Shown: positions 1 to 32,000, counted from the first letter of the stretch. The stretch is DNA of 32,000 nt from Candidatus Saccharimonadota bacterium (GCA_004563595.2 CP042461.1:990001-1022000), one strand, 5' to 3'. The notes: generated by a model from the sequence alone, not told the origin. Translations and numbers: made by a program.

Positions 1-246
1 GAAATGAAGTCCTTCTCAAATATCTACCATTGTAGTATTTGGAAAATTCTTCTCAATCCAAGAGGCTTCGCTTCTTTTCATAATCATTCATGGATCTGCA
101 TAAAAACAAATCTTTGGGATTTGAGTTTCTTTTAACCAATTATGATAGTTTTCAACAACATCAAAGATTTCTTAATGTATCCTACTTCCCTTTACTTCTA
201 AGTACTTTGACTCAAAAGGAAATTTTGATGAAATTTCTTTTGTCAT
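1..246 (-). pseudogene. Haloalkane-dehalogenase-like alpha/beta-hydrolase remnant with an internal deletion and in-frame TAA; runs off the window start
   Basis: ATG at 244-246 gives MTKEISSKFPFESKYLEVKGSRIH, the typical dehalogenase N-terminus (FPF..YVEV.G.RMHY). A TAA follows at 172-174. The same frame then continues EIFDVVENYHNWLKETQIPKICFYADPGMIMKRSEASWIEKNFPNTTMVDIGEGLHF, which matches the family C-terminus (cf. ..VEAYMNWL....PKLLFWG.PG........A......PN...VDIG.GLH). The roughly 200 codons of catalytic core are absent. Confidence 0.6.
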
Positions 247-257
247 ATTGTAATTGA

Positions 258-845
258 TTATTTTGTAAGCATACCGTGTAAAAATAAGTCTATATTCCCT
301 TGTAACCACCTCTGTTTATATTCAGCATTTGTAATAATATTAAAACCCATTCCTTTTTTCAGCCAATCTGAGTGCAGAACTTGGTTTCCTAAACGATCTA
401 TAATAAGCCCTGTTAACATTTCTGCATCGAGTTCTTCACGTACAAATCACTTTTTTTTAGATGCTGATATAAATGCAATAAATCAATCTGTATATTCGAG
501 AAAAGCTTCAGGTATTACATGTTCTCTAGATACTACTATGTATGATGTCTTTTGTCGTATCAAAGCTTCCAAAGTTTCTTCAACAAAAAGTCAAAAACGA
601 GAAACAAATTCTTGGTAAGTATCTGGTTCTTTCTTAATAATTCTTAAGGTATTGGTAAAGACTTCTGCTGAGAATTTCTCTAGTATACTTTCATATAAGC
701 CTTGCTTGTTACCAAAATAATGATGAATCATATTTATTCCCGTATTAGCTTCTTTACATATTTCTCTAATCGAGGCTCCTTTAAATCACTTTTCTGAAAA
801 GAGAAGAGAGCCTGATTCAATTAATCTTTCTTTTGGGTCTTTCAT
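258..845 (-). CDS. TetR/AcrR family transcriptional regulator (195 aa, table 25)
   Basis: N-terminal HTH: MKDPKERLIESGSLLFSEKGFKGASIREICKEANTGINMIHHYFGNKQGLYESILEKF. Four in-frame TGA codons read as Gly (e.g. EKGFKG). ATG 843-845, TAA 258-260, 588 nt. Confidence 0.8.
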
Positions 846-848
846 ATT

Positions 849-1358
849 TTATGAGTTAATTTTTTTTAGTTTTCTTGGATGTGGTTTTCCTGTTTCTACA
901 AAGTATTTTAACTCTTCTAGTATATCTCAAAACCCTTTTTTAAAACCAAGTATTAAAAGAGGGTATAAGACATAACCATGAGGCTTCAACTGAGGATTTG
1001 CTGTCCAAATGACTTCAGTTTGATCGTCTCCTACGCTTATCGCTGAGATGTCGAGAGTATTCTTCACTATGGGTAAGAGACCTGGTCCATTTTTCGGTAC
1101 AATCTCTACAGTCATTAAATGCTTATCTCAGTCATAAAATGTGATTTTTTCATTCGCCAATAATCCTTGAGCTCATTTACTCGTAAATTCACATATTCTT
1201 CCTACCATTGGAGATCAAGAAGCAGACTTCCCTTCTTGTATTTTATGAGATTTTGGAACTGGAGACATCCAATCTCCTGCTTTATCAAAATCGTCAGCTA
1301 ATACTTTCCATACATCACCTATTGGTGAATTAATAAGTACTTTTATTGATACTTTCAT
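849..1358 (-). CDS. SRPBCC (START/polyketide-cyclase-like) family protein, 169 aa
   Basis: MKVSIKVLINSPIGDVWKVLADDFDKAGDWMSPV... is typical of the SRPBCC N-terminus. In frame with track ORF 927..1115 and joined through TGA(Gly) codons. The stop lies 3 nt before the TetR start, so they form an operon. Confidence 0.6.
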
Positions 1359-1400
1359 AGTTTAAAAATGAGTTAATATTTATTATAACAACTTAAAAAA

Positions 1401-1439
1401 ATATAACAGTTGTTACAATTAGTATAACAACTGTTATAT
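1401..1439. promoter_or_regulatory. Perfect 15-bp inverted repeat, candidate TetR operator upstream of the SRPBCC-TetR operon
   Basis: ATATAACAGTTGTTA (1401-1415), a 9-nt spacer, then TAACAACTGTTATAT (1425-1439). A third half-site-like TATAACAACT sits at 1384-1393. The repeat lies about 45 nt upstream of the operon start codon. Confidence 0.6.
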
Positions 1440-1566
1440 TTAAATCAAGTTTATTTTATAAATATTCATCTTTTGGGCATTCATTATTGTTTAAAAATTA
1501 TTTCATATATTATATTTGATTCATTTAAAATTCAAAAAATTTAGTGAGTATTTTCAAATAAAAAAT

Positions 1567-1722: not shown

Positions 1723-2112
1723 CTAAACCAGAGCATTGACCAAACAAAATACATTTAATGCACCTAAAACAAATTCGGAAATTACCCCTTGAATTATCAA
1801 TTTGTTTGGTTTTCCATCTAAAACAATACTAAGTGATCTCCCAAATGCATATCCAAGAAAAAGCAAGATCGCAACAGCAAATGAAATAATAGTCATTTTT
1901 GGGATAAAAATACCCGATACAATAATAATTCCACCAAACATCATAACAGAACTCATTCCTCTAGCCTCACTTAATAGGTTTACTTCGTTTTCAAGTTTAA
2001 TTCCAGTATTCTTTAAATAATTTTTTATAGGGTTAATGAGTCTTAATACCCCCGCAAATGTAAATACTAATAAACCTGAAATTAATAGTACTATAATGTT
2101 AAATATTTCCAT
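1723..2112 (-). CDS. Small integral membrane protein (four predicted TM segments, DUF4345-like)
   Basis: Intact 129-aa track ORF, hydrophobic with regularly spaced TM helices. It contains no TGA codons, although I count about 14 Gly. Confidence 0.6.
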   Translation of the reverse strand: MEIFNIIVLLISGLLVFTFAGVLRLINPIKNYLKNTGIKLENEVNLLSEARGMSSVMMFGGIIIVSGIFIPKMTIISFAVAILLFLGYAFGRSLSIVLDGKPNKLIIQGVISEFVLGALNVFCLVNALV

Positions 2113-2455
2113 TTTTAAATGTTTTTTGTTAATGATAATGTAAACTAAATTTAGTTTTATGACAAAAGAAGCTCAAGAGTATTTTAGTGTTTTTATACTA
2201 AAATACAAAAGTAATTCTTCATAAGTCATATTGCATGGAGGATTTGGTATTAAAGTCAGTTTTTATTTCATATATTATTTTTGCATCAAAAAACCTAATT
2301 TTCATTATCAAATCCACCATTTTAAAAAATAAACTTTAAAAAAATGTAATCAGATATAAGGCTAATAAACTTAATTGACTTTTTCTTAGAGATATATAAA
2401 ATTAATTAAGTTGTTGAAACACTTTAAAGTAAACTTATAAAAATAATGTGCATTT

Positions 2456-2587
2456 ATGACAAGTACGCTTGTAATAAATGCTAAAATAGTTTATTTACCA
2501 TGCTTACGGGTATGATGTGGACCAGTAATTACTGGAGTATGCCATTATATAGAAAGCCTTTCTATTAATGGATTAAACCTCAAGTAA
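2456..2587 (+). CDS. Candidate 43-aa Cys-containing small protein
   Basis: MTSTLVINAKIVYLPCLRVGCGPVITGVCHYIESLSINGLNLK, with one TGA read as Gly. A terminator follows directly at 2604-2628. No family was recognised. Confidence 0.3.
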
Positions 2588-2603
2588 ACAACAAAATTTT
2601 GAA

Positions 2604-2628
2604 AAGCGAGAAAAGTCGCTTTTTTTTT
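2604..2628 (+). terminator. Rho-independent terminator
   Basis: AGCGA-gaaaag-TCGCT followed by T8. Confidence 0.6.
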
Positions 2629-2640
2629 GAAATAAAATAA

Positions 2641-2667
2641 AAAAGTGTTAAATTATTTAACACTTTT
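2641..2667. terminator. Bidirectional terminator hairpin
   Basis: AAAAGTGTTAAAT-T-ATTTAACACTTTT, with an A-run upstream and a T-run downstream. Confidence 0.65.
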
Positions 2668-2681
2668 TGGCTTTGTTTAAG

Positions 2682-2723
2682 TAATGGCAGGCCGTAGAGA
2701 TAAGTAATGAGGAACTAACTGAG
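2682..2723. repeat. Conserved ~42-nt element, copy 2
   Basis: TAATGGCAGGcCgtagAgATAAGTAATGAGGAACTaactGAG. It has the same position relative to its terminator as copy 1, which is 1070 bp away in direct orientation. Confidence 0.6.
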
Positions 2724-2735
2724 TTAATAGAAGAA

Positions 2736-2960
2736 ATAATCAATTAAGGATCAAATAAGTTATTGGCTTAAAACAAGGGACTATTTTCAATAATAGTACA
2801 AAGTATCAAATAACAATCAAATAAGAATATTTCTATAATAAAGTAATTATTACTAATACTTTCAATAATAATCAATTAAGGATCAAATAAGTTATTGGCT
2901 TAAAACAAGGGACTATTTTCAATAATAGTACAAAGTATCAAATAACAATCAAATAAGAAT
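2736..2960. repeat. Perfect 93-bp tandem direct duplication (2736-2828 and 2868-2960, period 132 bp) with 3 ATCAAATAA sites per copy
   Basis: The two copies are identical by direct reading. ATCAAATAA occurs at 2750-2758, 2805-2813, 2816-2824 and again at +132 for each. Copy 2 ends exactly at the stop codon of the 2960..4426 gene. Confidence 0.9.
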
Positions 2961-4426
2961 TATTGTACCCAATGTGGGATATATTTAGCATGTTTTCTAG
3001 TATTACTCTTAGGATCAAATGGTTTTATCTTTCATTCTTCTAGGGCTAATTTTATTAACCTAGAGGCTATAGCAGAATTTTGTTTTTCTATTCAAAATCT
3101 TTCACATACAGAATCATTAGTCATTGGTTCATTTTCTAATACAAACACTAATACGCAATGCCAATAGATTGATTCTGATTTTTCTTTATTTGTAAGTTTT
3201 CAAATTGGTCTTGTTCTAAATAAAATAACTCTAGTAAAGTCATCACTTTTTTCCATTTTTGGATTTGGAAGTTTCGATATCCTTAAAGCATTCATAGCTC
3301 TATCAACTCAACTTCATCTTCTTTCACAATGATTAGCTCTTCTCATAAAATCAGCTAAAAGTTCATTTCTAGATTTAGGAGGATGATCAACAAACCTATC
3401 AATTTCTATAAGAGGAATACCTGGATTAGAAATCTCAACTCTATCATCAAATATTTCAATAAGAACTTCTACTCAACTCATTCTTAGGTCTTGATGAATT
3501 ATTGAATTCGCAATAAATTCTCTCAAAGCAACTTTTGGATATAAAGGTTCATTTACTCTTCATTCTTCAATTGTTTCAATTTTAGGAACTTGCTGTAATA
3601 CAAATTTTATAAGTCCTGGAAATGCTATAGCATATCATTTTTTTCATTTTACATCACTAATTGCATGTAATCTATTTTTTCATCTATAAGTAATAACTCT
3701 AGGGGATTTATTTTTGAGGTTGAAAATTGTTAAATCTTTAGCAAAAAGTAATGCACATGCATTTGTGATATCATATAATCAATCTCTAAATTTTAATAAA
3801 TCATCTTGAAGGAGTTTTTCAATTCATTCTTGTTCTGAGTTTATTTCATATCACATCATCTTAGCGTATCAAAGTAAATCAATATACTCAGTCACTTTTA
3901 TATCTGAAATTTTAGATAAACAAATATCTGTATCAAATGAACTTCAAAGAATTTTTTCCCAAAGTTTAGATTCTAAATTTTTATATCATACAATCGACTT
4001 AGTATATGTATCAACTCTTACATATGTTGTTCAATCAAAAATGACTGGTTTTGTTTCTGCAGAGTTAATAACCAATACTACTATATTTTTATCTTCTTTA
4101 TAGTTTTCTATTTCATAAAAATTAAAATCAGAAAATCAATCTAAGCTCCTAATAAGCCAAGGAAGTAAGTCTTCATTTCATTTTCATTTTTTTGTTCTGT
4201 ATTTAAAGTTTGTTCCTACTACAGTATGATTATCAGGGTCTATTCAAAAAATCACATACCCATCAGGTCTATCTAATATTCTTGATGTATTTGCAATAGC
4301 AGAAATATTTCAACCTATTTCTTTTGAACTATGAAAATTTTTCTTAAATTCACACCAAGGTAACTCATGCGCTTTTCATTGTTTCAGGCAGTATTCAATT
4401 ATATCTATAAGTTGTGCTTTTTCCAT
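2960..4426 (-). CDS. Schlafen/AlbA_2 plus HATPase_c_4 (divergent AAA, RecG-like C-terminal) putative transcriptional regulator, COG2865-like, 488 aa
   Basis: N-terminus: MEKAQLIDIIEYCLKQGKAHELPWCEFKKNF...GYVIFGIDPDNHTVVGT (AlbA_2/Schlafen-like). Central region: LYPKVALREFIANSIIHQDLRMSGVEVLIEIFDDRVEISNPG (ATPase-like motif). C-terminal winged-helix-like segment: MTNDSVCERFGIEKQNSAIASRLIKLALEEGKI. There are about 30 in-frame TGA(Gly) codons. ATG 4424-4426, TAA 2960-2962, 1467 nt. Confidence 0.7.
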
Positions 4427-4597
4427 GCATATATATTAAAAAGTATCTTTTATTAGTAGTATAGGTATTTTTAAGTATATCTGCAAGTTTTTTAAAGCTA
4501 TTTAATTATTATATCCTGATATACCAATAATTATTCAAAAAAATATTTAATACCATTCATTACTTAATAAACTCAACTAATTTACTAAAAAATCATC

Positions 4598-4635
4598 AAA
4601 AAAAAGCACTAAATTATTTAAAATAACTTAACGCT
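4598..4635 (-). terminator. Terminator downstream of tRNA-Trp
   Basis: On the minus strand, AGCGTTAAGTTATTT-T-AAATAATTTAGTGCT (with G-U pairs) is followed by a T-run. Confidence 0.55.
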
Positions 4636-4655
4636 TTTTAGCTTTAATTAGTGTA

Positions 4656-4730
4656 TGGCAGCCTCACTAGGAATCGAACCTAGCTCGCAGGATTTGGAAT
4701 CCTGAATTCTAACCGATGAAATATGAGGCT
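4656..4730 (-). tRNA. trnW: tRNA-Trp (anticodon CCA), CCA end encoded
   Basis: Minus-strand cloverleaf: AGCCTCA TA TTTC ATCGGTTA GAAT T CAGGA TTCCAAA TCCTG CGAG CTAGG TTCGATT CCTAG TGAGGCT G CCA. The acceptor stem has 7 bp, the anticodon loop is TT-CCA-AA, the T-loop is TTCGATT and the discriminator is G. Confidence 0.9.
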
Positions 4731-4766
4731 ATATATCCTCAGCCGGAGCTGAGAATATGAATGTGA

Positions 4767-5552
4767 TTATATAGAAAATCTAGAAAAAGATGTAAGTGTA
4801 TCTTCACCGATAAAAGCTTTTACTTTTTGGTTCGGATCAATTACGAAAGCTTGTTCATATAGCGAAATTTCAGATTTGAATTTCCCTATTTTCCCTCCGA
4901 TAATTTTTAATAATACATCATCAGATTTATTCCCCATTTTTTCATCATTTTTCATGATTTCTAATTGGATAGCTTTTTCCTTTTCTACTACTTCTTCAGA
5001 AATATCATCAGCTTTAAGATATTCAGGATTTGCAGCAGTTACATGCATAGCAATTTGTTTTAGCTTATCTTCATCAGTTCCAGCTTTTGCAACTACAACA
5101 GCAGCTAATTTACCGTTTGAATGAACATATGATCCAACAGTATCACCTTGAAGAACTAAGTAATCTTTGATTTGTAAATTTTCACCAAGTTCAAGAGCAT
5201 AGTCACCATTTATAAGTAATTGAGCTGCATCTTTTGAGTCAGCACCATTTGCTTTTAAATATTCACATATGTCAGTTAACATAGCTTTAAATTTATCTGA
5301 GATAGCAAGGAAGTCAGTTTCACATGAAATAGAAACTACATAAGAAGTTCCAGCTTCAGTGATAATTTTGATTCCACCTTCAAGAGCTTCTCTATCAGCT
5401 TTTTTAGCAGCTTTTGCTAAACCTTTTTTCCTCAGTTCTTCAATAGCTAATTCCATATCACCATTGGCTTCAGTTAATGCTTTTTTACATTCCATCATCC
5501 CAATACCAGTTCTTTCTCTTAACTCTTTTACTTGAGCAGCAGTTATTGCCAT
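4767..5552 (-). CDS. tsf: Translation elongation factor Ts
   Basis: MAITAAQVKELRERTGIGMMECKKAL... is the canonical EF-Ts N-terminus. I take ATG at 5550-5552 as the start; the track's first codon at 5589-5591 is TTG and adds 13 unlikely residues. The gene has no TGA codons. Confidence 0.93.
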   Translation of the reverse strand: MAITAAQVKELRERTGIGMMECKKALTEANGDMELAIEELRKKGLAKAAKKADREALEGGIKIITEAGTSYVVSISCETDFLAISDKFKAMLTDICEYLKANGADSKDAAQLLINGDYALELGENLQIKDYLVLQGDTVGSYVHSNGKLAAVVVAKAGTDEDKLKQIAMHVTAANPEYLKADDISEEVVEKEKAIQLEIMKNDEKMGNKSDDVLLKIIGGKIGKFKSEISLYEQAFVIDPNQKVKAFIGEDTLTSFSRFSI

Positions 5553-5580
5553 AATTTTCTTATTAAGGATTAATTCATCT

Positions 5581-5625
5581 CCCTTTTTCAAAGGGAGTAC
5601 CCCAACAGGGGGGAGGGATTATAAA
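5581..5625 (-). promoter_or_regulatory. GC-rich structured leader between the DUF4870-like gene and tsf
   Basis: Minus strand: GAGGGAaaataacattttataaTCCCTC-CCCCctgttGGGG-taCTCCCTTTgaaAAAGGGAG. These are three adjacent or alternative hairpins in an otherwise AT-rich context, with no trailing U-run. Confidence 0.4.
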
Positions 5626-5645
5626 ATGTTATTTTCCCTCTTTTA

Positions 5646-5990
5646 TTATTTTTTCTTTTTTTCAGTTGTTTCTAATTTTTCTTTGATCTTTTGTTCTAAG
5701 TTATCAATATGTTCAAGTTCTACTTTTTCTCAATTATATGCCTTAAATCATAGGAATACTGTGATTCAAATATATATAAAGAATAAAAGTGGTCCTAAAA
5801 TTCATGCAAGAAGAGATTGTAATAGAGAATATCCTATAAACAATACTATTCAATACTTAATATGCTTCATTAATTCAGCGCTTTTATTACTTTCTGTAAA
5901 GAAAAATATAACAGCAACTAAAGGTATATAACAAAGAGCATGCTTTAAATTCATATTTTTTGAAGTTTCACTTTTTCCCATATGTTTCAT
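5646..5990 (-). CDS. Small membrane protein, DUF4870/Tic20-like, 114 aa
   Basis: MKHMGKSETSKNMNLKHALCYIPLVAVIFFFTESNKSAELMKHIKYGIVLFIGYSLLQSLLAGILGPLLFFIYIGITVFLGFKAYNGEKVELEHI... with six TGA(Gly) codons. It is antisense to the spurious track ORF 5626..5931. Confidence 0.6.
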
Positions 5991-6011
5991 TTAGAAAAAT
6001 AAATTCAACTA

Positions 6012-6839
6012 TTATTTAGTTTCTTCTGTTTTTACTTCTTCTTTTTTAGCAGGAGCTTTTTTTTCTGCAACTACTTCCTTTTTGATTGGAGCAGTTTTAG
6101 TAGGAGTTCTTTTTTCACCACTTACTCTTTTTGCATCAAATTTTCTTACTACTGTAGCTTTTACTTTTACACCAGCTAAACTTTCAGTTATTATCTTTGC
6201 AATAAAATCAATAGATTTTACTGAGTTTGTATTTGCAGGTATTAAATTTTGAACTACTGTTTCATCACCATTTGTATTCATAATTGCATACGCAGGAAGG
6301 TTTAAAGAATTTGCTTCTTTAACAGCTTGTTTTTCAAATACTCCATCAATAGCAAAAATTACATCTGGAATTTTTTTCATTTCTTTTAATCATTTGAATG
6401 CTCTATCTAATTTTTCTAATTCAAGCATTTTAGCAGCTTTTTCTTTTTTTGTTAAAACATCCAAAGCTCCTGATTCAGAATCTTTTAATAATCTTAAATA
6501 TGTAGCAATTCTCTTTTTAATTGTTTTAAAATTTGTTAATAGACCAGGAACCCATTTTTCAGTTACGTAAAAATGCCCTGTATCTTGAGCTAATTTAGCA
6601 AAAGCATCTCTTGTTTGAAGTTTTGTAGCAACAAAAAGAATTTTTTTCCCTTCAGCATGAAGATCTCTAATTTCTTTTTTTACTTCTTCTATTTTTTCAC
6701 CAGTTTTTACAAGATTAATTACATGTATACCATTTACAGTACCGTATATATAATCTTTCATTTTTGGATTCCAGTAGTTTGATTTATTTCCGATATGTAA
6801 GAGGTTATCAAACATTGAATTTAATATTTTTTTGTCCAT
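6012..6839 (-). CDS. rpsB: 30S ribosomal protein S2 with a K/A/E-rich C-terminal tail
   Basis: Track ORFs 6390..6839 and 6012..6380 are joined by TGA at 6390-6392. This gives ...LDRAFK-G-LKEMKKIPDVIFAIDG, aligning with the E. coli S2 region ..SLGGIKDMGGLPDALFVID. Confidence 0.93.
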
Positions 6840-6931
6840 TTGTTATTTATTATTTAAGTAAGCAAGATATTTTATGTCTTTAATAGATATTTTTGTGCCC
6901 TAAGAGAGGGCTTCCCAAAAATACTTAGTTA

Positions 6932-8408: not shown

Positions 8409-8431
8409 CTTTTCATATCTATTAAACCAAT

Positions 8432-8797: not shown

Positions 8798-8836
8798 AAT
8801 CTTCTCCTGGAGATTGATAGGTTGTCATGCATATAT

Positions 8837-8917: not shown

Positions 8918-9406
8918 TTATAATAATCATGGATTAGTTTTAAGAATTTGTTCCATTAAATATTCCTGAGTTTCTAAAGATTTCTGCGCACGCCCTCTAA
9001 ATGTTTTTCTCAAAAAAGGAACACATAGTATATCATTTGTAATTTCCTTAGTTGCATTTCCTATATTATTCAGCTCAAAAGTATCTGAAAAATCAAAACC
9101 TCAAATGCCCTGTATTTCATTACTTATTTCTAATTCGTCTGAAACTATCATATTAATCCAATACGTATAAATGATTATTTCTTCACCTATCGGAGATATA
9201 AGTCAATCATATGTTCCATACTCACTGATCTGATTGAGCATAAGATCTAATCATCCTAATTCTTCTCTTATTTCCCTACGAAGAGCTTCTATTCTACTTT
9301 CTCATTTATCAACTTTTCAGCCTGGCAACACCCAAAACCCTTGTCTATTTTTTACCAGTACTAGCTTATCATCCTTATGTATAATTCATCAAACTACCTC
9401 AATCAT
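8918..9406 (-). CDS. Nudix hydrolase, 162 aa
   Basis: Nudix box: GGKVDKGESRIEALRREIREELG (GX5EX7REUXEEXGU). Several Gly, including box glycines, are encoded by TGA. ATG 9404-9406, TAA 8918-8920. Confidence 0.8.
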
Positions 9407-10512: not shown

Positions 10513-10544
10513 TCAAAAGAAAAACCTACTTTTTTAGTAGGTTT
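10513..10544 (-). terminator. Terminator overlapping the lepA stop
   Basis: AAACCTACT-ttttt-AGTAGGTTT with a trailing U-run on the minus strand. Confidence 0.6.
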
Positions 10545-12412
10545 ACGAATGCTTCACTTGGTAAACTTACTTTCCCAAATTGCTTCATTTTCTTCTTTCA
10601 TTTCTTTTGTTTTTCGAGAAGTTTTTTCTTTCTAGAAATATCTCAACCGTAGAGTTTTGCAGTTACATCTTTTCTCATCGCTGAGATGTTTTCTCTTCAT
10701 ACTACATCAGCTCATACCACTGCTTGAATTTTGATAGTAAAAAGTGCTTTTGGTATTGATTCTTTCAAATTTGCACAAATTTTTCCTCATAGATAACGTG
10801 ATTGATCTCTGTGACAAATAAAAGCGAGAGCGTCTACTTTTTCTTCTGCTATTAATATTTCTAATTTCACTAAATCATCTTCGCTATACCTTATAAATTC
10901 ATAATTCAGAGAAGCATATCAACTTGAGAGAGATTTAATTTCATCATAAAAGTCTCAAATAAGCTCATTCATTGGGAGTTCATAGGTCAGCATCACTCTA
11001 TCTGAATCAATATAGGTTTGGTTTTTGAATATTCCCCTTCTGTCTTGTGATAGCTTCATAAGATTTCCTACATATGCTTGAGGAGTAATAATTTCAACTT
11101 TTGCAATTGGTTCTTCGATATAAAGATACCTTTCTCTATTTGGAAGATCTTCTGGATTTGAGACAAGTATTCTGGTACATTTTTGTCATTTTTCATTCTT
11201 GAGTAACTCTGCTGAATATCTTGAATACTCAGAGAGTTTATCTCAAAGTAACATTACCCTATAAGTCACCTGTGGCGCTGTCATAATAACATCCATTCAA
11301 AACTCTCTCATGAGTCTTTCTTTGACAATATCCAGATGTAGTAAACCTAAAAATCCACATCTATAACCATGTCCAAGTGCAGGACTTACTTCTGATTCTA
11401 CAAAGAGTGCTGAGTCATTTAATACCAGTTTCTCCATTGCATCTTTTAGCAATGGATATTCTGAAGAATCCATTGCAAATATACCTGCATAAATAAAAGG
11501 AGTTACTTCTCAAAAACCTTCAATTGGGCTTGCATCTTCAGGCTTTGCTTTTGGTCATTCTATATTTTCTGGTTTCCATATAGTATCCCCTACTTTTGCA
11601 TCTCTAATTGTTTTGAGGCCAGTTACCACATATCAAATCGCTCCATTTTCTATCTTATCATCACTTGTATACTGTGGTGAGAAGTATCATACATCAAGCG
11701 CTTCTATTTTTTTTGTTGTATTCAGAAAGGTTAAACTATCTCATTTTTTAATTTCTCATTGAAATACTTTTACATATGAAACAACTCCTCTATATGGATC
11801 ATATTGAGAATCAAAAACAAGAGCTTTACATTCATCAACTACAACATCTCATCACTTGTTATATACTTGAGGCTCACTGACTCTTTCTATTACAGCCTCT
11901 AAAATAGCTTCAACATTTTCTCATGATTTCGCTGATACTGGTATGATTTCTGATTTTTCACAGCCTAAAAGATTCACAATTTCTTCTGAAACTTTTTCCA
12001 CATCAGCAGCTGGTAGGTCAATTTTATTAATTACAGGAATAATATCTAAATCATTCTCTATAGCCATATATACATTACTCAGAGTCTGAGCTTCGATTCC
12101 CTGAGTAGCATCAACAATTAATAAAGCTCCTTCAACAGAAGCGAGACTACGCGATACTTCATACTGAAAATCAACATGACCTGGAGTATCAATAATATTC
12201 ATTTGATACTCTTTCCAATTCATTCTTACAGGCTGAAGCTTAATTGTAATTCCTCTTTCTTGCTCAAGTTCCATTGTATCAAGCATTTGAGAATTTTTCA
12301 TATCTCTTTTATCAATGGTTCCAGTGATTTCTAATAATCTATCCGCAAGTGTAGATTTCCCGTGATCGATATGTGCTATAATACAAAAATTTCTAATTTT
12401 ATTTAATTCCAT
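10526..12412 (-). CDS. lepA: Translation elongation factor 4 (LepA), 628 aa
   Basis: Track ORF 11921..12412 ([26 protein letters not shown]...) ends at TGA 11921-11923. Reading through gives VSAKS-G-ENVEAIL, which aligns with the SAKTG.G motif of LepA. The C-terminus [38 protein letters not shown] matches the LepA end ([32 protein letters not shown]). Confidence 0.93.
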
Positions 12413-16185: not shown

Positions 16186-17001
16186 CTAATTGTTAATTTT
16201 TAAGATAAGCTCTCACCAAATAGCTATACTTAAGTCTTCTCACCTTGTATTTTCTTGTATTCACAAATTATGAAATACCTGTAAGATATAGTCTTTTTCA
16301 TATCATGATTTTACAAGATTGTTCAGAAGTTTTTTTCTTGGCTCACGAAATCATTTTTTAATAATTTCTAAAAAAACTCTATCGTCAATATAGTTATATT
16401 CATCATGAAGTTCAAAAAGTAATACTGATGATTCTACTTTTGGGGCTGGAACAAAATTTTCTTTCCCTACACTCATAATTTCAGATACTCTACATTTTTT
16501 ATTTACAAATAAGCTTAAAACTGACGATTTATTTTTTCATTTTCATAAAATCTTTTCTCATACATCAGCTTGCATAAGAATCACCATTTTTTCTGGTTTA
16601 TTCATAACATCATATATAAAATGTCTTAATATAGGGGATGTAATGTAATATGGTATATTTGCAATAATTGAATATTTTTCCTGTTCAGACTCAAATTTTA
16701 ATACATCTGTATTATGAATACAAAAATTAACGTCTCATATATTTAAATCTTTCTCTTCTATTCTTTGCTCCAAAATTTTTATCATATCTTTATCAAGCTC
16801 TACTAAATCTAAACTATGAGGGTTTTTTTGAAGAAGTTTTTCTGTAAGGGCTCAATAACCCGGTCAAACTTCAACTATATTTTTTCAGTTCACATCAATT
16901 GAATCAGCTATACTTTCTACTATCACATCATTTACAAGAAAATTCTGCCCGAGAGATTTTTTTGCTTTGATATGGTATTTCTTTAACACTTCAAGACTCA
17001 C
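16186..17001 (-). CDS. rsmA: 16S rRNA (adenine1518/1519-N6)-dimethyltransferase
   Basis: Motifs: KKSLGQNFLVND, VEVGPGYGALT (both G-x-G glycines are TGA, at 16852-16854 and 16864-16866), IIANIPYYITSPIL and FVPAPKVESSVL. GTG start at 16999-17001, with a TAA immediately upstream in frame. Confidence 0.88.
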
Positions 17002-17884: not shown

Positions 17885-17997
17885 TAATTAAAAGCTATAA
17901 AAAAATAAAAGATTCTCATAAGTAATATGGGGTCTTTTTTTTGATTTTTCTGATATTTTACATATAAATGAAGTATTATCCTCCTCATTTTTTTTGT

Positions 17998-19419
17998 ATG
18001 AAATTATTTAGATACCTTACCCTTGCTTCTCTATTTTTGTTTTTACTTGTACAAAATCTATATATTTCTTTTGCAAATATAAATCTGACAGTTTCTCCTA
18101 TTAAGTATGAAATAGACGGTTTTACTGGAACCACTATCACAAAAACAGCGAAACTTATCAATAATACAGATAATAGTCTTACCATTTCTACTTGAAAATC
18201 TGATTTCACGAGCTCTGGATTAAGTGGGAAACCAAATTTTGTAAGGAAGAGTGAGTTAATTTTTCCTGACCAACAACTCTCATCATGGATTAGTATTGAT
18301 ATATCAAACTTTGTACTCTGACCTAAAGAAGAAAAAGAAGTTATTTTTACAATTGATATCCCTGCAAATGCAACCCCTGGATGACACTACTGAGCTGTAT
18401 TTTTCAAACAAGCAAGTACCTGAATAAGTGGTTGAAATAACATCTGAATAAATATTGATTATTGAGTCCTCGTACTCATAAACGTGGATTGAGAGATAGT
18501 AAGTTCATGAGAGATAGAAGATATTACCATTAGTAATAGTTGATGATGAGGTTGATGGTGATGAGGAGAGAGTAATACTCAGATTGATGACTGTCCTTTC
18601 TGAGATCTCTCCAAAAGTAATTATGATAATAAGTGTATAGATGAAATATTTAATGATGACAATAATAAGGCTGAGAATGAAAGTGGACTCAATTGAACAG
18701 GAACAACGAGTGAAGATGAGAACAAAGATGAAGGAAACAAAAATGATGACTTAAATATCAATTTTGAAATACCATTTAAAAATACATGAAATACCCACCT
18801 GAAACCAGAAGGAAAAATAAAACTTTATGATGAAGATTGAAATCAACTTAAATGAATTTGAAAACAAATTATTACAAATGATAACTGAGTTATCATTTGA
18901 GAAGATATCGTGGATTACCTCCCTATTAACGATATTGGATGAAATGTGCTCCCCTCTTCAAAAAGAGTCTTTGAATCTCAGTGGAAATGATTCCCATATA
19001 AAGATGAAAATAATATTGTAAAATACTGGAATCCTTGAGAATACTATACAAGACAAAACATTAAAGATAGTTGATTCCTTATGTTTTGGGAAAGAGTTTT
19101 TCAAAGAAAAAATCGTAAAGAAATTACTGCGAGATTTGACCTTTCATATGAAAATAATACTTGAGAAGATATTGATCTTAATTCAGCACGTGAACTAGAT
19201 AATACTTTTTATATAGACTATACTGAAGACTACGTCTGACTAAATATGTATATTGTAATCCCTGGAGCATTTCTCATTTTTATAATATTTATATGGTTTA
19301 TCATATGAGTCAGAAGAAAAACAAAGTGTAGAAAATGTAGTGAAACAATTGAGAAAAAAATGAAAATTTGTCCTTACTGTTGAACAAAACAATCTCAGAC
19401 AAACAAAAAAAAGAAGTAA
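17998..19419 (+). CDS. DUF916-like cell-surface protein with a C-terminal TM anchor and a cytoplasmic CxxC...CxxC zinc-ribbon tail, about 473 aa
   Basis: Signal peptide MKLFRYLTLASLFLFLLV; an alternative ATG lies at 17968. The beta-sandwich-like N-domain ends LGPKEEKEVIFTIDIPANATPGGHYGAVFF. A glycine run SGGGGGWGGGE is encoded by tga tga tga ggt tga tgg tga tga gga at 18541-18567. The TM segment is YIVIPGAFLIFIIFIWFII, followed by KCRKCSETIEKKMKICPYCG. About 40 TGA codons, no TAA/TAG in frame. Confidence 0.6.
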
Positions 19420-22399: not shown

Positions 22400-23329
22400 T
22401 TATTCTACGATATCTCAGATCATTTTTTTCATGTCATCTTTCAAATTTGCTCTAAATACTCTCTTTTCTCAATATAATTCAAATCCAAGCTCATATGCAT
22501 GTAATGCTTGTCTCTTAATTTGATGCATAGTTGCTACTTCTTTGTTTACTCTCACATTTCAATATGTTGAATCTCAAAGAATAGGGTATCAAATTGATGC
22601 AAGGTGGACTCTAATTTGGTGAGTTCTTCCTGTTTCTAACTTTATCCTTAAAACTGAATATTTATTATCTACGTAGTCAAGTACCTCTCAATAAGTAATT
22701 GCTTCTTTTGCAGCTATTGGATTTAAAGTTGTCATCTTTGTCCTATCATCTTTGTGTCTTCCAATAAAACTTTCTATTTTAAAGTTCCTATCTTTGATCT
22801 TCCCATGAACAATAGCTATATAATACTTATCTATTTGTCTGTTTTTAATAATACCTGATAAATAATTCATCATCTTATCTGTCTTTGCAATCATAATCGC
22901 TCAAGTAGTATCTTTATCAAGCCTATGAACAATTCAAGGTCTTTCTACTCATCCAATACTTGGAAGGTTATCTTTACAATGATATAAAAGACCGTTCACA
23001 AGAGTTCATGTTTTTCAATTTTCTCCTGGGACTGGATGCACATTAACTCTCGGGTTTTTATTGAGAATAATTATTTCTTTATCTTCAAAGACTATATCAA
23101 GATCCATTTTTTCTGGTTCAACTTCTAATTTTTCCAGTTGAATTTCAATTTTAATTTCATCATGATTTGATATTTTTATATTTTTATTAACTTTTACTCA
23201 GTTAACAGAAACCTGTCCTCTATCAACTAACTTTTGAACATAAGACCTTGAGAAGTCCTTAAAAAGAGTAGATAAAAATATATCTACTCGTATCTGCTTT
23301 TCCACTAATACACAAAAATTATAAATCAT
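22400..23329 (-). CDS. rluD: RluA/RluD family 23S rRNA pseudouridine synthase, 309 aa
   Basis: S4-like N-terminus (RVDIFLSTLF...). The catalytic motif HRLDKDTTGAIMIAK has its Gly encoded by TGA at 22901-22903. Also present: GRTHQIRVHLASIGYPILGD. In frame with track ORF 22688..22894. Confidence 0.88.
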
Positions 23330-26822: not shown

Positions 26823-27497
26823 TTAATATCCTATATTTTCTCTAATTCGTTCTAACATACTCATATCAACTTCTGAAATATTTTTTGGCATCTTTGCATC
26901 TATTTTAATAATCAGATTTCATTTCTTTGTCCCTTCTGATTTTCAAAGACCTTTTACTCTAAACTTCGATCCAGGTTTTGTTCATGCTGGAATTTTTAAT
27001 TTCACCTTTGTCCCATACACTCCACTTACCTCTATTTTACAGCCAAGAATAAGATCAAAGATTGGTACTTGATAGGTTTTTTCAAAATCAAGACTCACTG
27101 GTTCTTCCTTTTTTTGAGCTCTTCTTGATCCTCAAAATCAAGTATTTCATCAAAATCCTCAGAATAAATCCTCCATGTTGATTCCTCAACTTCATCATGC
27201 TGATGCTCATCAAAACATATCTTCAAAACCTCAAAAGCCCCCAGATTGAGTTCATCACGCTCATCATCCAAATGAATTTCATGAGGCTGATCAAAAGGTA
27301 TCGTATTGCTGTTTTTTTTGTGAATCTGATAAAACAGTATATGCTTCATTTACCTCTTTAAATTTCTTTTCAGCTGTTGTATCATCTTTATTTCTATCAG
27401 GATGATATTTCATCGCTCATTTTCTATATGCTTTTTTTATCTCTTCTGATGATGCTGATTTGTCTACTCATAAGATATCATAAAAATTATTTGACAT
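26823..27497 (-). CDS. DnaJ/CbpA-like co-chaperone (J domain, G/F region, one C-terminal substrate domain, no zinc finger), 224 aa
   Basis: [36 protein letters not shown] (HPD motif). The G/F stretch is FGSASGNSFGGGAGGTQSGGFGGFEDMFGGASAGGSGG...FGGFGGNTGFGG, with most Gly encoded by TGA. The C-terminus is [24 protein letters not shown]. Track ORF 27095..27349 is an out-of-frame artefact inside this gene. Confidence 0.8.
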
Positions 27498-27994: not shown

Positions 27995-28020
27995 AAAAGA
28001 TGCTTAAAGGCATCTTTTTT
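27995..28020. terminator. Bidirectional terminator between convergent genes
   Basis: AAGATGC-ttaaag-GCATCTT-T5. Confidence 0.7.
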
Positions 28021-28699
28021 ATAAACTATATTCTCCCCCCTGGATATCAGAAACTACTCATTTTTTATCAAATGCTATCACTCTCTTTTTTAGAGAATTT
28101 ACTATATGACTATCATGTGTTGCCAGAATGATAGTCTTTCAATCTGCATGGAGATCTAAGAATATATTCATTACTTCCATTGCTGTTTCAGGATCAAGAT
28201 TTCAAGTTGGTTCATCTCATAGGATTATTTTTGGATCATGAACGAGTGCCCTTGCAATTGCAATTCTTTGCTTTTCTCCTCAACTCAGTTCAAATACAAA
28301 TTTATCTTTTTTGATAAGGAGTCATACTTGTTCCAATGCCTCTGGAACTTTTTTTCTAATTATTTCATCTGAATATCCACATACTTCCATAGCAAAGGCC
28401 ACATTTTCATATACCTTTTTTGACTCAAGAAGTTTATAATCTTGAAAAATAACTCATATTTGTCTTCTATATTCTAGTAAAGTTTCCTCGCTCATATTTT
28501 TGTATAATGCTATATTATTATCTAGAATAATATCTCACTTCATGGGTTTAAAATCTCATATAAGCGAACGAATTAATGATGTTTTTCAACTTCAAGAATA
28601 TCATATAAAAAATACAAATTCTCAAGCTTTTATTTCTAAATCTATATCACGAAGAATTACTTTATTTCTAAATGCTAAAGATACCTTGTCTATTTTCAT
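28019..28699 (-). CDS. ftsE: Cell-division ABC ATPase FtsE, 226 aa
   Basis: The Walker A motif IGYSGSGKTS has all three glycines encoded by TGA (28586-28588, 28592-28594, 28601-28603). Other motifs: RRQIGVIFQDYKLL, signature LSGGEKQR (first G is TGA), and Walker B IILGDEPTGNLD. Confidence 0.85.
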
Positions 28700-28797
28700 T
28701 CTTAGATTCTATAAAAAAATATTTTAATAATTCTAATATGTTTTATTTTTTTGTAAAGAAAAAAGCCGAGAACTTATCTCTCGACTATTTTTATTTC

Positions 28798-30162
28798 CTA
28801 TTTTACAATGAATAATGATAAGATGTATAATCATCCTGTAGCTGTAACAAGTGATACAAATGCAGTTGATAATCAACTTTTCATCCATCATCTAAATGTG
28901 ATTGGATTATCAGTTTGTTCTGATTTTGAAACAACAATTATATTTGCTGTTGATCCGATAGGAGATGCATTTCATCCAAAACCTACCCCAAATACAAGTG
29001 CCCACCATAAGAGTTCTACTCATGGGAGTTGAACTTCGTACTGTAAATATGCGATGATAGGTAACATAGCAACTGTCATTGGTATATTATCAACGAGTGC
29101 AGATAATACAGCAGATACCCATAACACAATCAATGCTGTCACTAATATGTTATCTGCAGCTCATGCTGTAATAAGCTCAGCTAATGCTTTGAGTACTCAT
29201 GCATGTTCGAGACCTCAAACTATTACAAACAGTGCTCAAAAGAAAAGAAGTACAGATAATTCGAGTTTTTCTAATATTTTTTGAGGATCTTTTGTAGCAG
29301 AAACAAGTATTAATGCCAATGATGCTCCAATAATTGCTACCATTGAAGGTGATATATGGATTATGTGATGAACAAAAAATAATATTACTACTATTCCAAG
29401 TACAACAAGTATTTTCTTGAGAGTTTCAGGATCAGTAATAGCTTCTTCTTCTTTCATTTTCATCAAATCTTCAATTGCTTTTGGATCTGGTTTTTCTTGA
29501 AGTTCTTTCTTAAATACAATTTTTAATGTAAACAGTGTCAAAAACCAAGCGACAAATACAATAGGCATTGAGTGAACCAAAAAATCAGTGAATGAAAACC
29601 CTGCAACTGAACCTATCATAATATTAGGTGGATCTCAGACAAGTGTAGCAACTCACCCTGTATCAGAAAGCAGAGCTTCTGCCATCAAGATTGGAGTTGG
29701 ATTTAATCTTAAAATTTTACAAATAATTATCGTAATTGGTACAATAAGTATAATAGTTGTAACATTATCTAATATTAAAGATAATAGAGTTGTTAAAGTT
29801 CAAAGAGCAACGGTCAACTTCCATAAGTTTCATCCCGTCTTCTTGGCAACCTTTATTCATAAATATTGAAATGCTCATGTCTGTTCTAATATAGCAACTA
29901 TAACCATCATTCAAAATAATAGTCCAATTGTATTAAAATCTATAGCTGCTTTTGCTCACTCAGGAGAGTAAAATCAAAAAAACATTCAAGCAATTACCAT
30001 AACTAAAGCTCATATAAGTCAGATTACTGATCTATGAATTCTCTCAGAGAGAATAATTCAAAAAGTAATTACAAATATAACTATACTTAACCAAAAACCA
30101 GTTCCACCGGTTGTATGAGCCACCACTTCACTTACGATGAGTGCTCAAGTTCCTACTTCCAT
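28798..30162 (-). CDS. ArsB/NhaD (SLC13-like) superfamily anion permease, 454 aa
   Basis: About 11 TM segments. Motifs include SERIHRSVIGLIGALVMV, LDNVTTIILIVPI and SALVDNIPMTVAMLPI. In frame with track ORF 29236..29619. Several plus-strand track ORFs here are antisense noise. Confidence 0.75.
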
Positions 30163-30214
30163 TTGTTTATCAAATTACATATTAAATTAATAAACCTCCT
30201 TTTTTTTATCAATT

Positions 30215-30664
30215 TTAATTAATTCACAATTCAGAAGCTAACATTTTTTTCAATGAGCTTCTTGTAAAGACTCAAACTGGTGCCCCATTTTCATCTAAAA
30301 CTGGGATTTTTGTTTGTCTTCATTCAGTAACAATAATAGCTGCTTCCATCATAGAAGTATTTATTTTAATTGCTTTTGTAAATGGCATCATAAAATCTTT
30401 TAACTCTTTGTCTTGCACCTCTTGTAAACATTCATCAAAAAGAGAATCCGTTGTAAAATGAGCTAAATTCTTTTCATTTCACAAATATGCAGGTATTGCT
30501 GCCTTTGTTAAAGTCACAATATCTATCCCTCATACAAGTTTATTTTCATTATCTACCACTAACAAAGAATTACAATTTTTGTCTGCCATAATTTGTAATG
30601 CTTCTTTAAATGTAGATCATTGGTTTACCTTAATTGCATCTCTCATAAATTTTTTTATATCCAT
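30215..30664 (-). CDS. CBS domain pair protein, 149 aa
   Basis: MDIKKFMRDAIKVNQGSTFKEALQIMADKNCNSLLVVDNENKLVGGIDIVTL...FMMPFTKAIKINTSMMEAAIIVTEGRQTKIPVLDENGAPVGVFTRSSL, which reads as two CBS motifs. Confidence 0.75.
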
Positions 30665-30733
30665 TGGTTTCTATAAAAAAAATAAAAAGTGGACTTATCC
30701 TAGGAGTTTTTTCCTGAAAATCAAGACATAATT

Positions 30734-30769
30734 AAAAAAAGTATGATACTATATTTTTATCATACTTTT
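30734..30769 (-). terminator. Terminator after the coupling-protein gene
   Basis: Perfect 10-bp stem AAGTATGATA / TATCATACTT with U7 on the minus strand. Confidence 0.7.
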
Positions 30770-30774
30770 ATTCA

Positions 30775-32000
30775 TTACTTTTCTTCTATTTTTTTATTTG
30801 CAGCCTGCTTTTCTAACATTTCATTATGCTTCTTTGCTTTTGTTTCTTTTTCTTTTTGTTTATAGTCTTCTTTCTTCTTTTCCCATGCAAGCTCTTGCTT
30901 TTCTAAGTCATTCATTGTCTTATTAATTTTCCCTTCTACCATTTTTCTGTCTTTTGAATATTTTTCACGACTTACTGAAAGTATTTTTTTATATCTCTTT
31001 ATAAATGCCTCATCGTCCTTTGGGTATGGAGCAAATGTTCCTGCTGAAAATATTGGAGAAGGCATTCAATCAATCAATTGTTTTAAATAAATCTTATATT
31101 TACTTAAGTTCATAAGATCTTCTTCTGATACTTCTCACGCTAAAACTTCTTTTAGTATCATAGAATCATGATATCATACTTGAAATGAAACTAAGCTTCA
31201 CACATTCCCAAATACTGCTCATCGCACTGATTCCTGCATTTGATCAATATATTGATTTGCCATTACAAGGTTCAATTTATATTTACGAGCCTCTGACAAA
31301 ATAGTCGCAAAACTGTCGGTAGCAAAGTTTTGAAATTCATCTACATAGAGATAAAAATCTTCTCTTTCATGTTCTGGAATATCAGCTCTACTCATGGCAT
31401 CCATTTGGAATTTTGTTACCATCATCGCTCATAAAAGAGCTGAGGCATCTTCTCAAATCTTCCCTTTTGAGAGATTTACAATAATAATTTTATTATTATC
31501 CATTGCCCACCTCACAGAAAAGGAATTTTTTGGTTGTCATAATATATTTCTCAAAATAGTACTTGATAAAAACTGTCCTACTTTGTTTAATATTGGTCCA
31601 GCTGCTTCTACTTTTTGATTTGGTGCCATTTTGGCAAATTCTCATGTCCAAAATTTCTTTACCACTGGATCAGTTATTTTATTTACCACCTTTCATCTAA
31701 ATACATCACTTGTGAGCATAAGTGGTATAGACATCAAAGTACTGTTTGGATATTCAACCAGTGCTAGAATGGTATTTCTTAATATATGTTCTAACCTTGG
31801 TCCCCAACTATCTCAAAATATTTTTTTAAATATTCATACAAGCCCAGATGCAACCAGGGGCCTTTGTTCTGGAGATACATCATCAAGCATATTAAATGCA
31901 ATTGGCCAATCTCTATCAGACGGATCAAATATAATCGTTTGATTGGTTCTACTTTTTGGAATATGTCCTATTACCGCTTCTGCTAAATCTCCATGTGGAT
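30775..32000 (-). CDS. VirD4/TraD/TraG-like type IV coupling ATPase, C-terminal part (5' end beyond the window), with a K/E-rich tail
   Basis: The frame is continuous through TGA codons: ...IIFDPSDRDWPIAFNML...GDSWGPRLEHILRN...IIIVNLSKGKIGEDASALLGAMMVTKFQMDAMSRADIPEHEREDFYLYVDEFQNFATDSFATILSEARKYKLNLVMANQYIDQ...AVFGNVGS. This includes a Walker B-like YVDEFQNF and the T4CP C-terminal pattern. It joins track ORFs 31219..31425 and 30775..31065. Confidence 0.7.

Follow-up and report, generated by a model that had tools for sequence, protein, structure and literature searches.

The analyzed window, a stretch of 32,000 nt with a G + C content of 28.8%, belongs to the chromosome of Candidatus Gracilibacteria bacterium 28_42_T64 (BD1-5; GCA_004563595.2). 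Its LepA is identical to the NCBI entry 'elongation factor 4 [Candidatus Gracilibacteria bacterium 28_42_T64]', and all named entries among the 120 listed LepA relatives are Gracilibacteria, which bears out the Gracilibacteria/Absconditabacteria lineage that an earlier note on this DNA had deduced from the genetic code. A 2019 paper presented the closed genome with an annotation based on translation table 25 (PMC6851277), and the GTDB order of the genome is given as BD1-5 in the Codetta table (PMC8629427). The window encodes, among others, translation factors, ribosomal proteins, an ABC ATPase, RNA-modifying enzymes and two tRNAs (Table 1).

Table 1. Features of the window discussed in the text and their in-frame TGA codons.
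Feature	Position	Strand	In-frame TGA	Remarks
tRNA-Trp, anticodon CCA	4656..4730	-		5-bp anticodon stem (CAGGA/UCCUG); encoded CCA end
EF-Ts	4767..5552	-	0	sole long CDS without TGA (0/19 Gly codons)
Ribosomal protein S2	6012..6839	-	1	
NUDIX hydrolase	8918..9406	-	8	
LepA (EF4)	10526..12412	-	19	
RsmA/KsgA	16186..17001	-	12	GTG start
Membrane-anchored protein	17968..19419	+	32	
RluD-type pseudouridine synthase	22400..23329	-	12	
Pilin-like protein, 767 aa	24409..26712	-	53	N-terminal methylation motif
DnaJ-like protein	26823..27497	-	22	majority in G/F-rich linker
FtsE (ABC ATPase)	28019..28699	-	13	

When TGA was treated as a stop codon, only 21 stop-to-stop ORFs of at least 100 aa were obtained, with a total of 8,781 nt and a longest ORF of 284 aa. 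With TAA and TAG as the only stop codons, long ORFs were restored (800, 629, and 492 aa), and a greedy non-overlapping choice with a cut-off of 60 aa resulted in 33 CDS covering 84% of the window. The standard-code ORFs are thus artefactual, as had been claimed. The earlier note had counted about 38 contiguous CDS; the number was revised to 33 CDS of at least 60 aa plus a few small ORFs. The CDS terminate with TAA (27 of 33) or TAG (six of 33). In total, 376 in-frame TGA were found among 9,058 codons, counting RsmA from its GTG start (at 17001 or 16989), which corresponds to 4.15% of all codons and 54% of the Gly codons. UGA is thus found in frame throughout real genes, and TGA is present in 32 of the 33 CDS. 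Read as Gly, it raises the Gly content from 3.5% to 7.65%.

A fragmentation of genes is indeed what table 11 yields, and UGA could still be a stop, with the affected genes being pseudogenes, products of assembly or sequencing errors, or subject to occasional readthrough. All 376 interruptions are TGA, however, with no TAA or TAG among them, and all 33 frames remain open, in line with the statement that genes are split by TGA only. Essential genes (LepA, FtsE, RsmA, S1, S2) are hit, and the TGA sites are spread more or less uniformly along the genes, without enrichment toward the 3′ end (KS p = 0.05). Furthermore, at 44 TGA positions the relatives, which come from other samples, have TGA as well, and the contig SRR3580189_23126 from Logan, an independent assembly located through the exact EF-Ts sequence, is 100% identical to positions 2931-15552 (12.6 kb), which speaks against assembly errors. 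The gene for release factor 2, prfB, is reported as absent (PMC6851277). A stop or error reading was rejected and is practically inconceivable.

The TGA codons that had been singled out at conserved motifs were all located in frame. They appear as TCA on the plus strand, since most of the genes concerned are encoded on the minus strand. In FtsE, the Walker A motif IxYSxSxKT carries TGA at 28601-28603, 28592-28594, and 28586-28588, and TGA also occupies position x of the signature LSxGE and of the D-loop EPTxNLD. In an alignment with solved FtsE structures, these codons fall on the Walker A glycines, the LSGGE signature and EPTGNLD. Compared with FtsE of S. pneumoniae and M. tuberculosis, ten of the 13 TGA are found at Gly, one at Ala and two at variable positions; at the TGA before the Walker B Asp, Ala is the commonest residue. 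RsmA has TGA at 16864-16866 and 16852-16854 of the SAM motif VEVxPGYxALT, both aligning to Gly of B. subtilis KsgA. The catalytic-loop motif HRLDKDTTx of the RluD-type enzyme (TGA at 22901-22903) contributes one of six TGA on Gly among ten aligned to E. coli RluD. In-frame TGA was likewise verified at 11921 in LepA (SAKSxENVE) and at 6390-6392 in S2 (AFKxLKEM), where it is the sole TGA of the gene and where the codon is GGG or TGA in relatives L004 and L003/L005. Two of the eight TGA of the NUDIX hydrolase are located at glycines of the Nudix box (LPGxKVDKxE), and the description of the DnaJ G/F region as rich in TGA is accurate (Table 1). The two reported TGA runs are in frame as well: positions 18541-18564 in the membrane-anchored protein read TGA TGA TGA GGT TGA TGG TGA TGA (GGGGGWGG under code 25), and positions 25225-25236 on the minus strand contain (TGA)4 in the pilin-like protein.

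UGA therefore occupies Gly positions of standard-code homologs. The stronger statement that every TGA lies on an invariant Gly is correct for the motif glycines and does not extend to all sites: among the 15 TGA columns of LepA that could be aligned, Gly is the commonest residue in 11, the other four being variable or Ala, and only three of 11 TGA of RsmA are found opposite Gly of B. subtilis KsgA. About a third of the TGA positions fall in non-conserved columns, where homologs give little signal, and four further TGA of LepA are located inside lineage-specific insertions.

A low G + C content combined with in-frame UGA is also known from code 4 organisms such as Mycoplasma, Spiroplasma and several insect endosymbionts, in which UGA encodes tryptophan. 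Many public pipelines have translated the present genes with W; a W version of the same LepA exists, and 109 of the 120 related LepA listed are Trp-rich entries. In contrast, the NCBI LepA of 28_42_T64 has G at all 19 TGA positions. Both readings were compared with the residues of 133 distant LepA homologs (identity ≤53%). At the 19 TGA columns, Gly accounts for 58% of the homolog residues versus a background of 6.3%, whereas Trp is at background level (0.35% versus 0.34%), and eight of these columns are more than 90% Gly. At column 572 of LepA, Ala is the commonest residue.

An HMM built from the same 133 homologs was used to score each of the 20 amino acids at the TGA positions. Glycine was the best of the 20 with 866.7 bits and alanine the second with 839.4 bits, and tryptophan, with 831.7 bits, was 35 bits lower than glycine. 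Likewise, each of the 15 Pfam domains tested, which come from 10 proteins, gains score when G replaces W, and the gains add up to 268 bits. This includes ABC_tran of FtsE (110.4 vs. 66.5 bits), RrnaAD of RsmA (149.0 vs. 134.2 bits), PseudoU_synth_2 of the RluD-type enzyme (104.5 vs. 93.8 bits), NUDIX (47.9 vs. 33.2 bits), and DnaJ_C of the DnaJ-like protein (43.2 vs. 29.7 bits).

Codon alignments of LepA, S1, S2, EF-Ts, and RsmA with three relatives revealed which codons replace TGA. Opposite the TGA of the window, the relatives have 44 TGA, 38 GGN and 11 other codons; opposite the TGA of the relatives, the window has 44 TGA, 32 GGN and 16 others. TGG was found in neither direction, i.e., there is no TGA-TGG exchange among 169 aligned TGA sites, and the exchange partners are GGN at 70 sites, GCN at five and TCT/AGT at four. 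Between related genomes, UGA is thus exchanged for GGN but never for UGG.

The LepA columns, the 20-variant HMM, the Pfam domains and the codon alignments, four independent tests, support Gly and never Trp. A Trp reading would also raise the Trp content to 4.66%, compared with 0.51% from TGG alone, and would turn the P-loop into WxxWxWKT. The sole tRNA-Trp seen, at the locus listed in Table 1, has the anticodon CCA, as the earlier note had stated, and a normal 5-bp anticodon stem; it is no UGA reader. A tRNA-Trp with a UCA anticodon or a 4-bp anticodon stem was not found in the window and its nearby flanks. With codon exchange, LepA columns, HMM and Pfam all against it, the reading of UGA as Trp was rejected and is very improbable, in agreement with the earlier judgment that table 4 is untenable.

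One might also consider selenocysteine or a small amino acid other than Gly (Ala, Ser, Cys) for UGA, as Ala is the commonest residue at a few columns (LepA 572 and the FtsE position mentioned above) and as the default ARAGORN label of a tRNA(UCA) is 'SeC'. In the LepA HMM, the lead of G is 27-28 bits over A, N, and S and 36 bits over C, and exchanges with GGN far outnumber those with Ala and Ser codons. For selenocysteine, 4.15% of all codons is far too many, and the tRNA(UCA) of the lineage, with 74 nt and Gly identity bases, belongs to class I and is not long-armed. These assignments are accordingly extremely unlikely.

Taken together, the genetic code of the organism is virtually certainly NCBI translation table 25, with UGA as a Gly codon and termination at UAA and UAG only. 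No observation was at odds with it. This reading is based on the ORF structure, the residue identity, the codon exchange, the composition, the source identity, the literature and the tRNA of the lineage, and it confirms the main claim of the earlier note, that TGA is Gly across the window. Accordingly, the commonest Gly codon of this AT-rich genome is UGA. The reassignment, including its use by the 28_42_T64 genome, is established knowledge: a Codetta screen in 2021 predicted Gly as the meaning of UGA in GCA_004563595.2 (PMC8629427, supplement 5), and proteomics of another BD1-5 bacterium identified 40 Gly peptides versus one Trp peptide at UGA at the highest stringency (PMC4032931).

Judging from published work and from relatives, a dedicated tRNA-Gly(UCA) would read UGA. 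The window contains only tRNA-Trp(CCA) and tRNA-His, and no tRNA(UCA) was detected in it or in the 5.6 kb past its left end. In a pattern scan of related genomes, at least 79 low-GC Absconditabacteria/Gracilibacteria loci were found to share one conserved tRNA(UCA) that shows elements of glycine identity. It is 74 nt long, belongs to class I, lacks the long-armed tRNA-Sec structure and shows the identity set G1:C72, C2:G71, G3:C70, and U73, so that it should be charged by GlyRS. ARAGORN also calls a UCA-anticodon tRNA at loci of the lineage. The scan additionally matched tRNA-Gly-like UCA genes in a Streptococcus isolate, an Akkermansia MAG, and a Thalassotalea MAG. The same sources suggest that release factor 2 was lost, in which case UGA would not be read as a stop; in the genome paper of 28_42_T64, prfB was not detected and prfA is present (PMC6851277). 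UGG presumably remains a Trp codon, read by the tRNA-Trp(CCA) of the window.

The share of TGA among the Gly codons varies widely from gene to gene (chi2 = 151, df 25, p = 5e-20). The lowest shares are found in EF-Ts (0/19), S2 (1/13), and S1 (7/34), which are TGA-poor in the three relatives, too. UGA might thus mainly encode Gly with a decoding that is ambiguous or costly (slow, with some Trp misreading) and is therefore avoided by some genes. Single UGA peptides fitting Trp, Ala, Asp or Lys were observed in a relative by Hanke et al. (PMC4032931), so rare misreading may occur, and a wobble ambiguity of U34 between UGA and UGG was considered possible by Shulgina and Eddy. However, in 37 other recoded genomes the TGA share of IF-3 and L20 (0.455) was similar to that of their neighbours (0.424; Wilcoxon p = 0.44). 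As these two genes are not TGA-poor, a general expression-linked avoidance is not supported, and costly or ambiguous decoding appears rather unlikely, if conceivable.

Among known systems, UGA decoding by an opal-suppressor tRNA-Gly (UCC to UCA) in standard-code bacteria also employs a glycine tRNA; such suppressors have to compete with RF2 and read through true stops only in part, whereas the reassignment here is complete and genome-wide. Selenocysteine recoding likewise converts an in-frame UGA into an amino acid via a UCA-anticodon tRNA. It is restricted to a handful of genes and depends on SECIS elements, SelB and a long-armed tRNA-Sec, in contrast to the use of UGA in all kinds of genes here and the ordinary tRNA(UCA) of the lineage. 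Table 4, used by Mycoplasmatales/Entomoplasmatales and insect endosymbionts, likewise turns the stop codon UGA into a sense codon, in genomes that are AT-rich and reduced, and shares the link to the loss of RF2. It differs in the amino acid, which is Gly here and not Trp, and in the decoder, which is a tRNA-Trp(UCA) there and a tRNA of glycine identity in this lineage; the tRNA-Trp of the window keeps its CCA anticodon. Table 25, the code of Candidate Division SR1 and Gracilibacteria, which reportedly goes back to Campbell 2013, Rinke 2013 and Hanke 2014, agrees in these respects: UGA is Gly, UAA and UAG are the sole stops, UGG presumably remains Trp, and the lineage is a low-GC CPR lineage with a tRNA-Gly(UCA) and a reported absence of RF2. 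There is no difference in kind, and the local details of the window are the 54% share of UGA and its very uneven use between genes.

All coordinates quoted in the earlier note, which had claimed that TGA is decoded as glycine throughout the window, proved to be in-frame TGA codons within the named motifs. This applies to the Walker A motif of FtsE, the SAM motif of RsmA, the HRLDKDTTG loop of RluD, SAKSGENVE in LepA and AFKGLKEM in S2, as well as to the Nudix box, the DnaJ G/F linker and both TGA runs. The gene identities given there agree with Pfam. The re-calling of genes with TGA as a sense codon, as proposed in the same note, was carried out on the window, which has a GC content of 28.8%. 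Using the standard bacterial code with TGA as stop, 21 stop-to-stop ORFs of at least 100 aa were found, which sum up to 8.8 kb and of which the longest has 284 aa, whereas the longest ORFs with TGA as sense have 800, 629 and 492 aa. With TGA not a stop, a greedy non-overlapping set of 33 CDS of at least 60 aa covers 84% of the window, and 27 of these CDS terminate with TAA and 6 with TAG. After RsmA had been taken from its GTG start, 376 in-frame TGA were counted among 9,058 codons (4.15% of all codons). TGA is spread along the window CDS, and no 3′ enrichment, a sign of dual stop/sense use, could be detected.

For the comparison with relatives, LepA, S1, S2, EF-Ts and RsmA were compared codon by codon with three related loci of 79-88% LepA identity. 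The TGA codons of the window are opposite TGA in 44 cases, GGN in 38 and other codons in 11; the TGA codons of the relatives are opposite TGA in 44, GGN in 32 and other codons in 16 cases, and TGG occurs in neither direction. This pattern is the signature of synonymous exchange inside the glycine family. As TGA is kept across samples, an assembly error is ruled out. The same holds for UGA as a persisting stop codon, with pseudogenes, sequencing errors or readthrough behind the interrupted frames: TGA is the only interrupting triplet, essential genes keep intact frames and an independent assembly is identical. An exact look-up in other assemblies was possible with EF-Ts because this gene lacks TGA, and its sequence was found on ENA and Logan contigs. 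Window positions 2931-15552 show 100% identity with the Logan contig, and the ENA contig is the same as the window except at a repeat near 2830-2870.

The amino acid was determined first of all on LepA, for which an exhaustive HMMER search yielded 150 representatives of at most 53% identity, 133 of them aligned in full length. In these 133 homologs, glycine makes up 58% of the non-gap residues in the 19 TGA columns, compared to 6.3% over all columns and 81% in the window's own GGN columns. Tryptophan reaches 0.35% in the TGA columns, with a background of 0.34%. Eight of the TGA columns contain more than 90% glycine, four lie in lineage-specific insertions and the remainder are variable or alanine. 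When the TGA variants were scored by amino acid against an HMM made from distant homologs, with the query left out, G reached 866.7 bits, followed by A (839.4), N (839.2) and S (838.6), and W reached 831.7 bits. In ten window proteins, all 15 reported Pfam domains drop with W instead of G, by 268 bits in total, including ABC_tran (110.4 to 66.5 bits), CitMHS (291.7 to 238.3 bits) and T2SSF (155.9 to 119.5 bits).

In alignments to solved structures, 10 of 13 TGA in FtsE fall on glycines of the S. pneumoniae and M. tuberculosis proteins, including those in GxxGxGKT, LSGGE and EPTGNLD. Both SAM-motif TGA of RsmA and one other match glycines of B. subtilis KsgA, with eight others on variable residues, and 6 of 10 TGA in RluD match glycines of E. 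coli RluD, the catalytic loop among them. None of the TGA in the FtsE, RsmA and RluD alignments falls on tryptophan. Distant homologs, HMM likelihood, Pfam profiles and solved structures are four independent tests of the amino acid. The glycine content of the window CDS is 7.65% under code 25 and 3.5% without TGA; under code 4, the tryptophan content would be 4.66%. Code 4, with UGA as tryptophan, is therefore refuted by homolog columns, HMM, Pfam, structures, codon exchange and composition alike, as the earlier note had anticipated in calling it untenable. The frequency of TGA among all codons, the HMM scores and the spectrum of codon exchanges likewise refute a decoding of UGA as selenocysteine or another small residue. 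Decoding as glycine may carry a low level of ambiguity, for which no support was seen anywhere in the sequence.

Two tRNAs were found in the window with ARAGORN (see table), and an Rfam search, run with the gathering thresholds and also with E values of up to 0.5, returned no other RNA families. The tRNA-Trp carries the anticodon CCA, as already noted from the sequence. Species of tRNA-Trp(CCA) with a 4-bp anticodon stem have been proposed as UGA readers; the window tRNA has an ordinary 5-bp stem and is therefore not among them. The decoder was searched for in one-genome-per-species contigs with a tRNA-shaped pattern (G1-C2-G3, C70-G71-C72, U73, canonical T-loop, anticodon UCA). A highly conserved 74-nt tRNA was identified in at least 79 loci among the matches listed (at least 120), typically with the sequence GCGGATATGATGTAATTGGTGTAGCATAGCAGACTTCAGCTCTGTTCGTACGGGTTCGAGTCCCGTTATCCGCT. 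All these loci belong to MAGs of low GC content whose label is Absconditabacteria, SR1, Gracilibacteria, Vampirococcus or 'Peribacteria' or which are unclassified, and infC and rplT are commonly located downstream. In five of five family loci checked by ARAGORN, the UCA tRNA heads a Tyr-Ala-Arg-Glu tRNA cluster, and the order observed in relatives continues with infC, rplT and tRNA-Leu(UAA). This conserved synteny could help to find the decoder in newly sequenced genomes. The L20 proteins of the relatives are about 60-70% identical by eye, and L20 and IF-3 are too divergent for the 28_42_T64 ortholog to be a likely match in a search with them. The 28_42_T64 genome, to which the window belongs, does not occur among the tRNA(UCA) matches listed, and its tRNA-Gly(UCA) is inferred from the relatives. 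The closed 1.343-Mb chromosome of 28_42_T64 (28.87% GC), with genes predicted using code 25, is described as having prfA and 33 tRNAs, with prfB not detected (Sieber et al., 2019; PMC6851277). The absence of prfB is as reported in that paper, in the supplements of which neither tRNAs nor prfB are tabulated.

The tRNA-Gly(UCA) family is also present in many MAGs that bear the label 'Candidatus Peribacteria' (e.g., loci L007, L008, L021, L030, L058 [CP060225.1] and L119). Their ORFs become two- to three-fold longer once TGA is not a stop, and they are probably mislabelled members of the recoded Absconditabacteria/BD1-5 clade. Furthermore, tRNA-Gly-like genes with a UCA anticodon occur in taxa not known as recoded (loci L079, L014, L080, L085, L092, L109 and L122); opal suppression, errors in sequencing or contamination may account for them.

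Coordinates of RNA genes, TGA-poor genes and other loci
Feature	Sequence	Position	Remark
tRNA-Trp(CCA)	window	4656-4730	ARAGORN
tRNA-His	window	10371-10447	ARAGORN
tRNA(UCA) cluster	L046	1749-2399	relative
tRNA(UCA) cluster	L075	2737-3553	relative
tRNA(UCA) cluster	L054	2693-3405	relative
tRNA(UCA) cluster	L058	3214-4336	relative
tRNA(UCA) cluster	L067	680-1446	relative
tRNA-Gly-like(UCA)	L079	596-666	Streptococcus sp. LQJ-218; in tRNA gene cluster, flanked by tRNA-Phe and tRNA-Ile
tRNA-Gly-like(UCA)	L014	4985-5055	Akkermansia MAG
EF-Ts	window	4767-5552	TGA/Gly codons 0/19
S2	window	6012-6839	TGA/Gly codons 1/13
S1	window	6932-8146	TGA/Gly codons 7/34
Secreted protein	window	17210-17884	TGA/Gly codons 1/23
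DUF4345	window	1723-2229	TGA/Gly codons 1/13
TetR and SRPBCC	window		TGA/Gly codons about 25%
Direct repeat, ~132 bp, two copies	window	2725-2957	TRF: period 66, 3.5 copies
Gap, 730 bp	window	2230-2959	holds the repeat
Small ORF	window	2455-2586 (+)	43 codons, one in-frame TGA, several Cys
Terminator-like hairpin	window	about 2605-2630	GC-stem plus T-run
Paralogous gene pair and ATP-grasp ligase gene	window	12496-16069 (-)	

The TGA share of glycine codons differs strongly by gene (chi2 = 151, df 25, p = 5e-20). Besides the TGA-poor genes in the table, most window genes use TGA for 55-88% of their glycine codons. EF-Ts and S1 are TGA-poor in all three relatives, S2 less consistently (0-44%), suggesting that genes with high expression avoid TGA. 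For IF-3 plus L20, no TGA depletion against neighbouring ORFs was seen in 37 other recoded genomes (0.455 vs. 0.424, p = 0.44), so that an expression-linked avoidance is not established. Decoding of UGA as glycine could be costly, being slower or ambiguous with UGG/Trp by U34 wobble, and selection would therefore keep UGA out of particular genes, an explanation we regard as unlikely. The genes it would concern are tsf-rpsB-rpsA and the one for the putative abundant secreted protein, which are almost free of UGA, a pattern that three related genomes share.

A reassignment of CGA and CGG to tryptophan is reported for Absconditabacteria, and CGG as tryptophan has been proposed in some relatives. 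The window, with 6 CGA and one CGG, is too sparse to judge this. CGA codon 14 of RluD is opposite an arginine of E. coli RluD, and the sole CGG is codon 83 of a pilin-like gene. Arginine codon use in all window CDS is extremely skewed (AGA 211, AGG 40, CGT 21, CGC 0).

The direct repeat lies just downstream of a Schlafen/HATPase_c_4 gene. Since the ENA assembly differs from the window exactly there, its copy number may be variable or mis-assembled. The small ORF in the same gap is called as a gene by public pipelines, has no family match and is followed by the terminator-like hairpin; it could encode a small peptide or represent an RNA that lacks annotation. On the reverse strand, two adjacent paralogous N-formylglutamate-amidohydrolase-like genes were found beside the ATP-grasp ligase gene, and two ATP-grasp copies occupy the matching place in one relative (L004). 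Together, the window genes may form a small cluster for peptide or amino-acid modification.

The choice of code has direct consequences for annotation. A table 11 gene caller shreds the window, a table 4 caller places tryptophan in every P-loop, and all gene-level readings of the window must use table 25. Two LepA database entries are identical to the window protein at all non-TGA positions: the NCBI entry 'elongation factor 4 [Candidatus Gracilibacteria bacterium 28_42_T64]' has G at 19 of 19 TGA, and the one from ENA/JGI/Logan gene calls has W at all 19. Among the matches listed, 109 of 120 representatives of related LepA clusters are rich in Trp and show W at positions that are G in NCBI; most public copies of these proteins derived from metagenomes carry the table 4 error. 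The metagenome-derived sets of ENA, JGI and Logan hold Gracilibacteria proteins in table 4 translation, for example the W version of the window LepA (P0001) beside its counterpart with G (P0002). Large protein databases are systematically affected by this mistranslation.

Since 2013, UGA has been known to be recoded to glycine in Gracilibacteria and SR1. The same reading of the window, of which we are all but certain, is scientifically nothing new, as the phenomenon and its occurrence in the 28_42_T64 genome were both on record. For GCA_004563595.2 (GTDB o__BD1-5, s__MAAV01 sp004563595), a Codetta screen of 2021 inferred UGA as glycine and CGA as arginine, and left CGG uninferred ('?') (PMC8629427, supplement 5). 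In another BD1-5 bacterium, UGA as glycine was validated by proteomics, with 40 glycine peptides at highest stringency and one peptide each with Trp, Ala, Lys and Asp (Hanke et al., 2014; PMC4032931).
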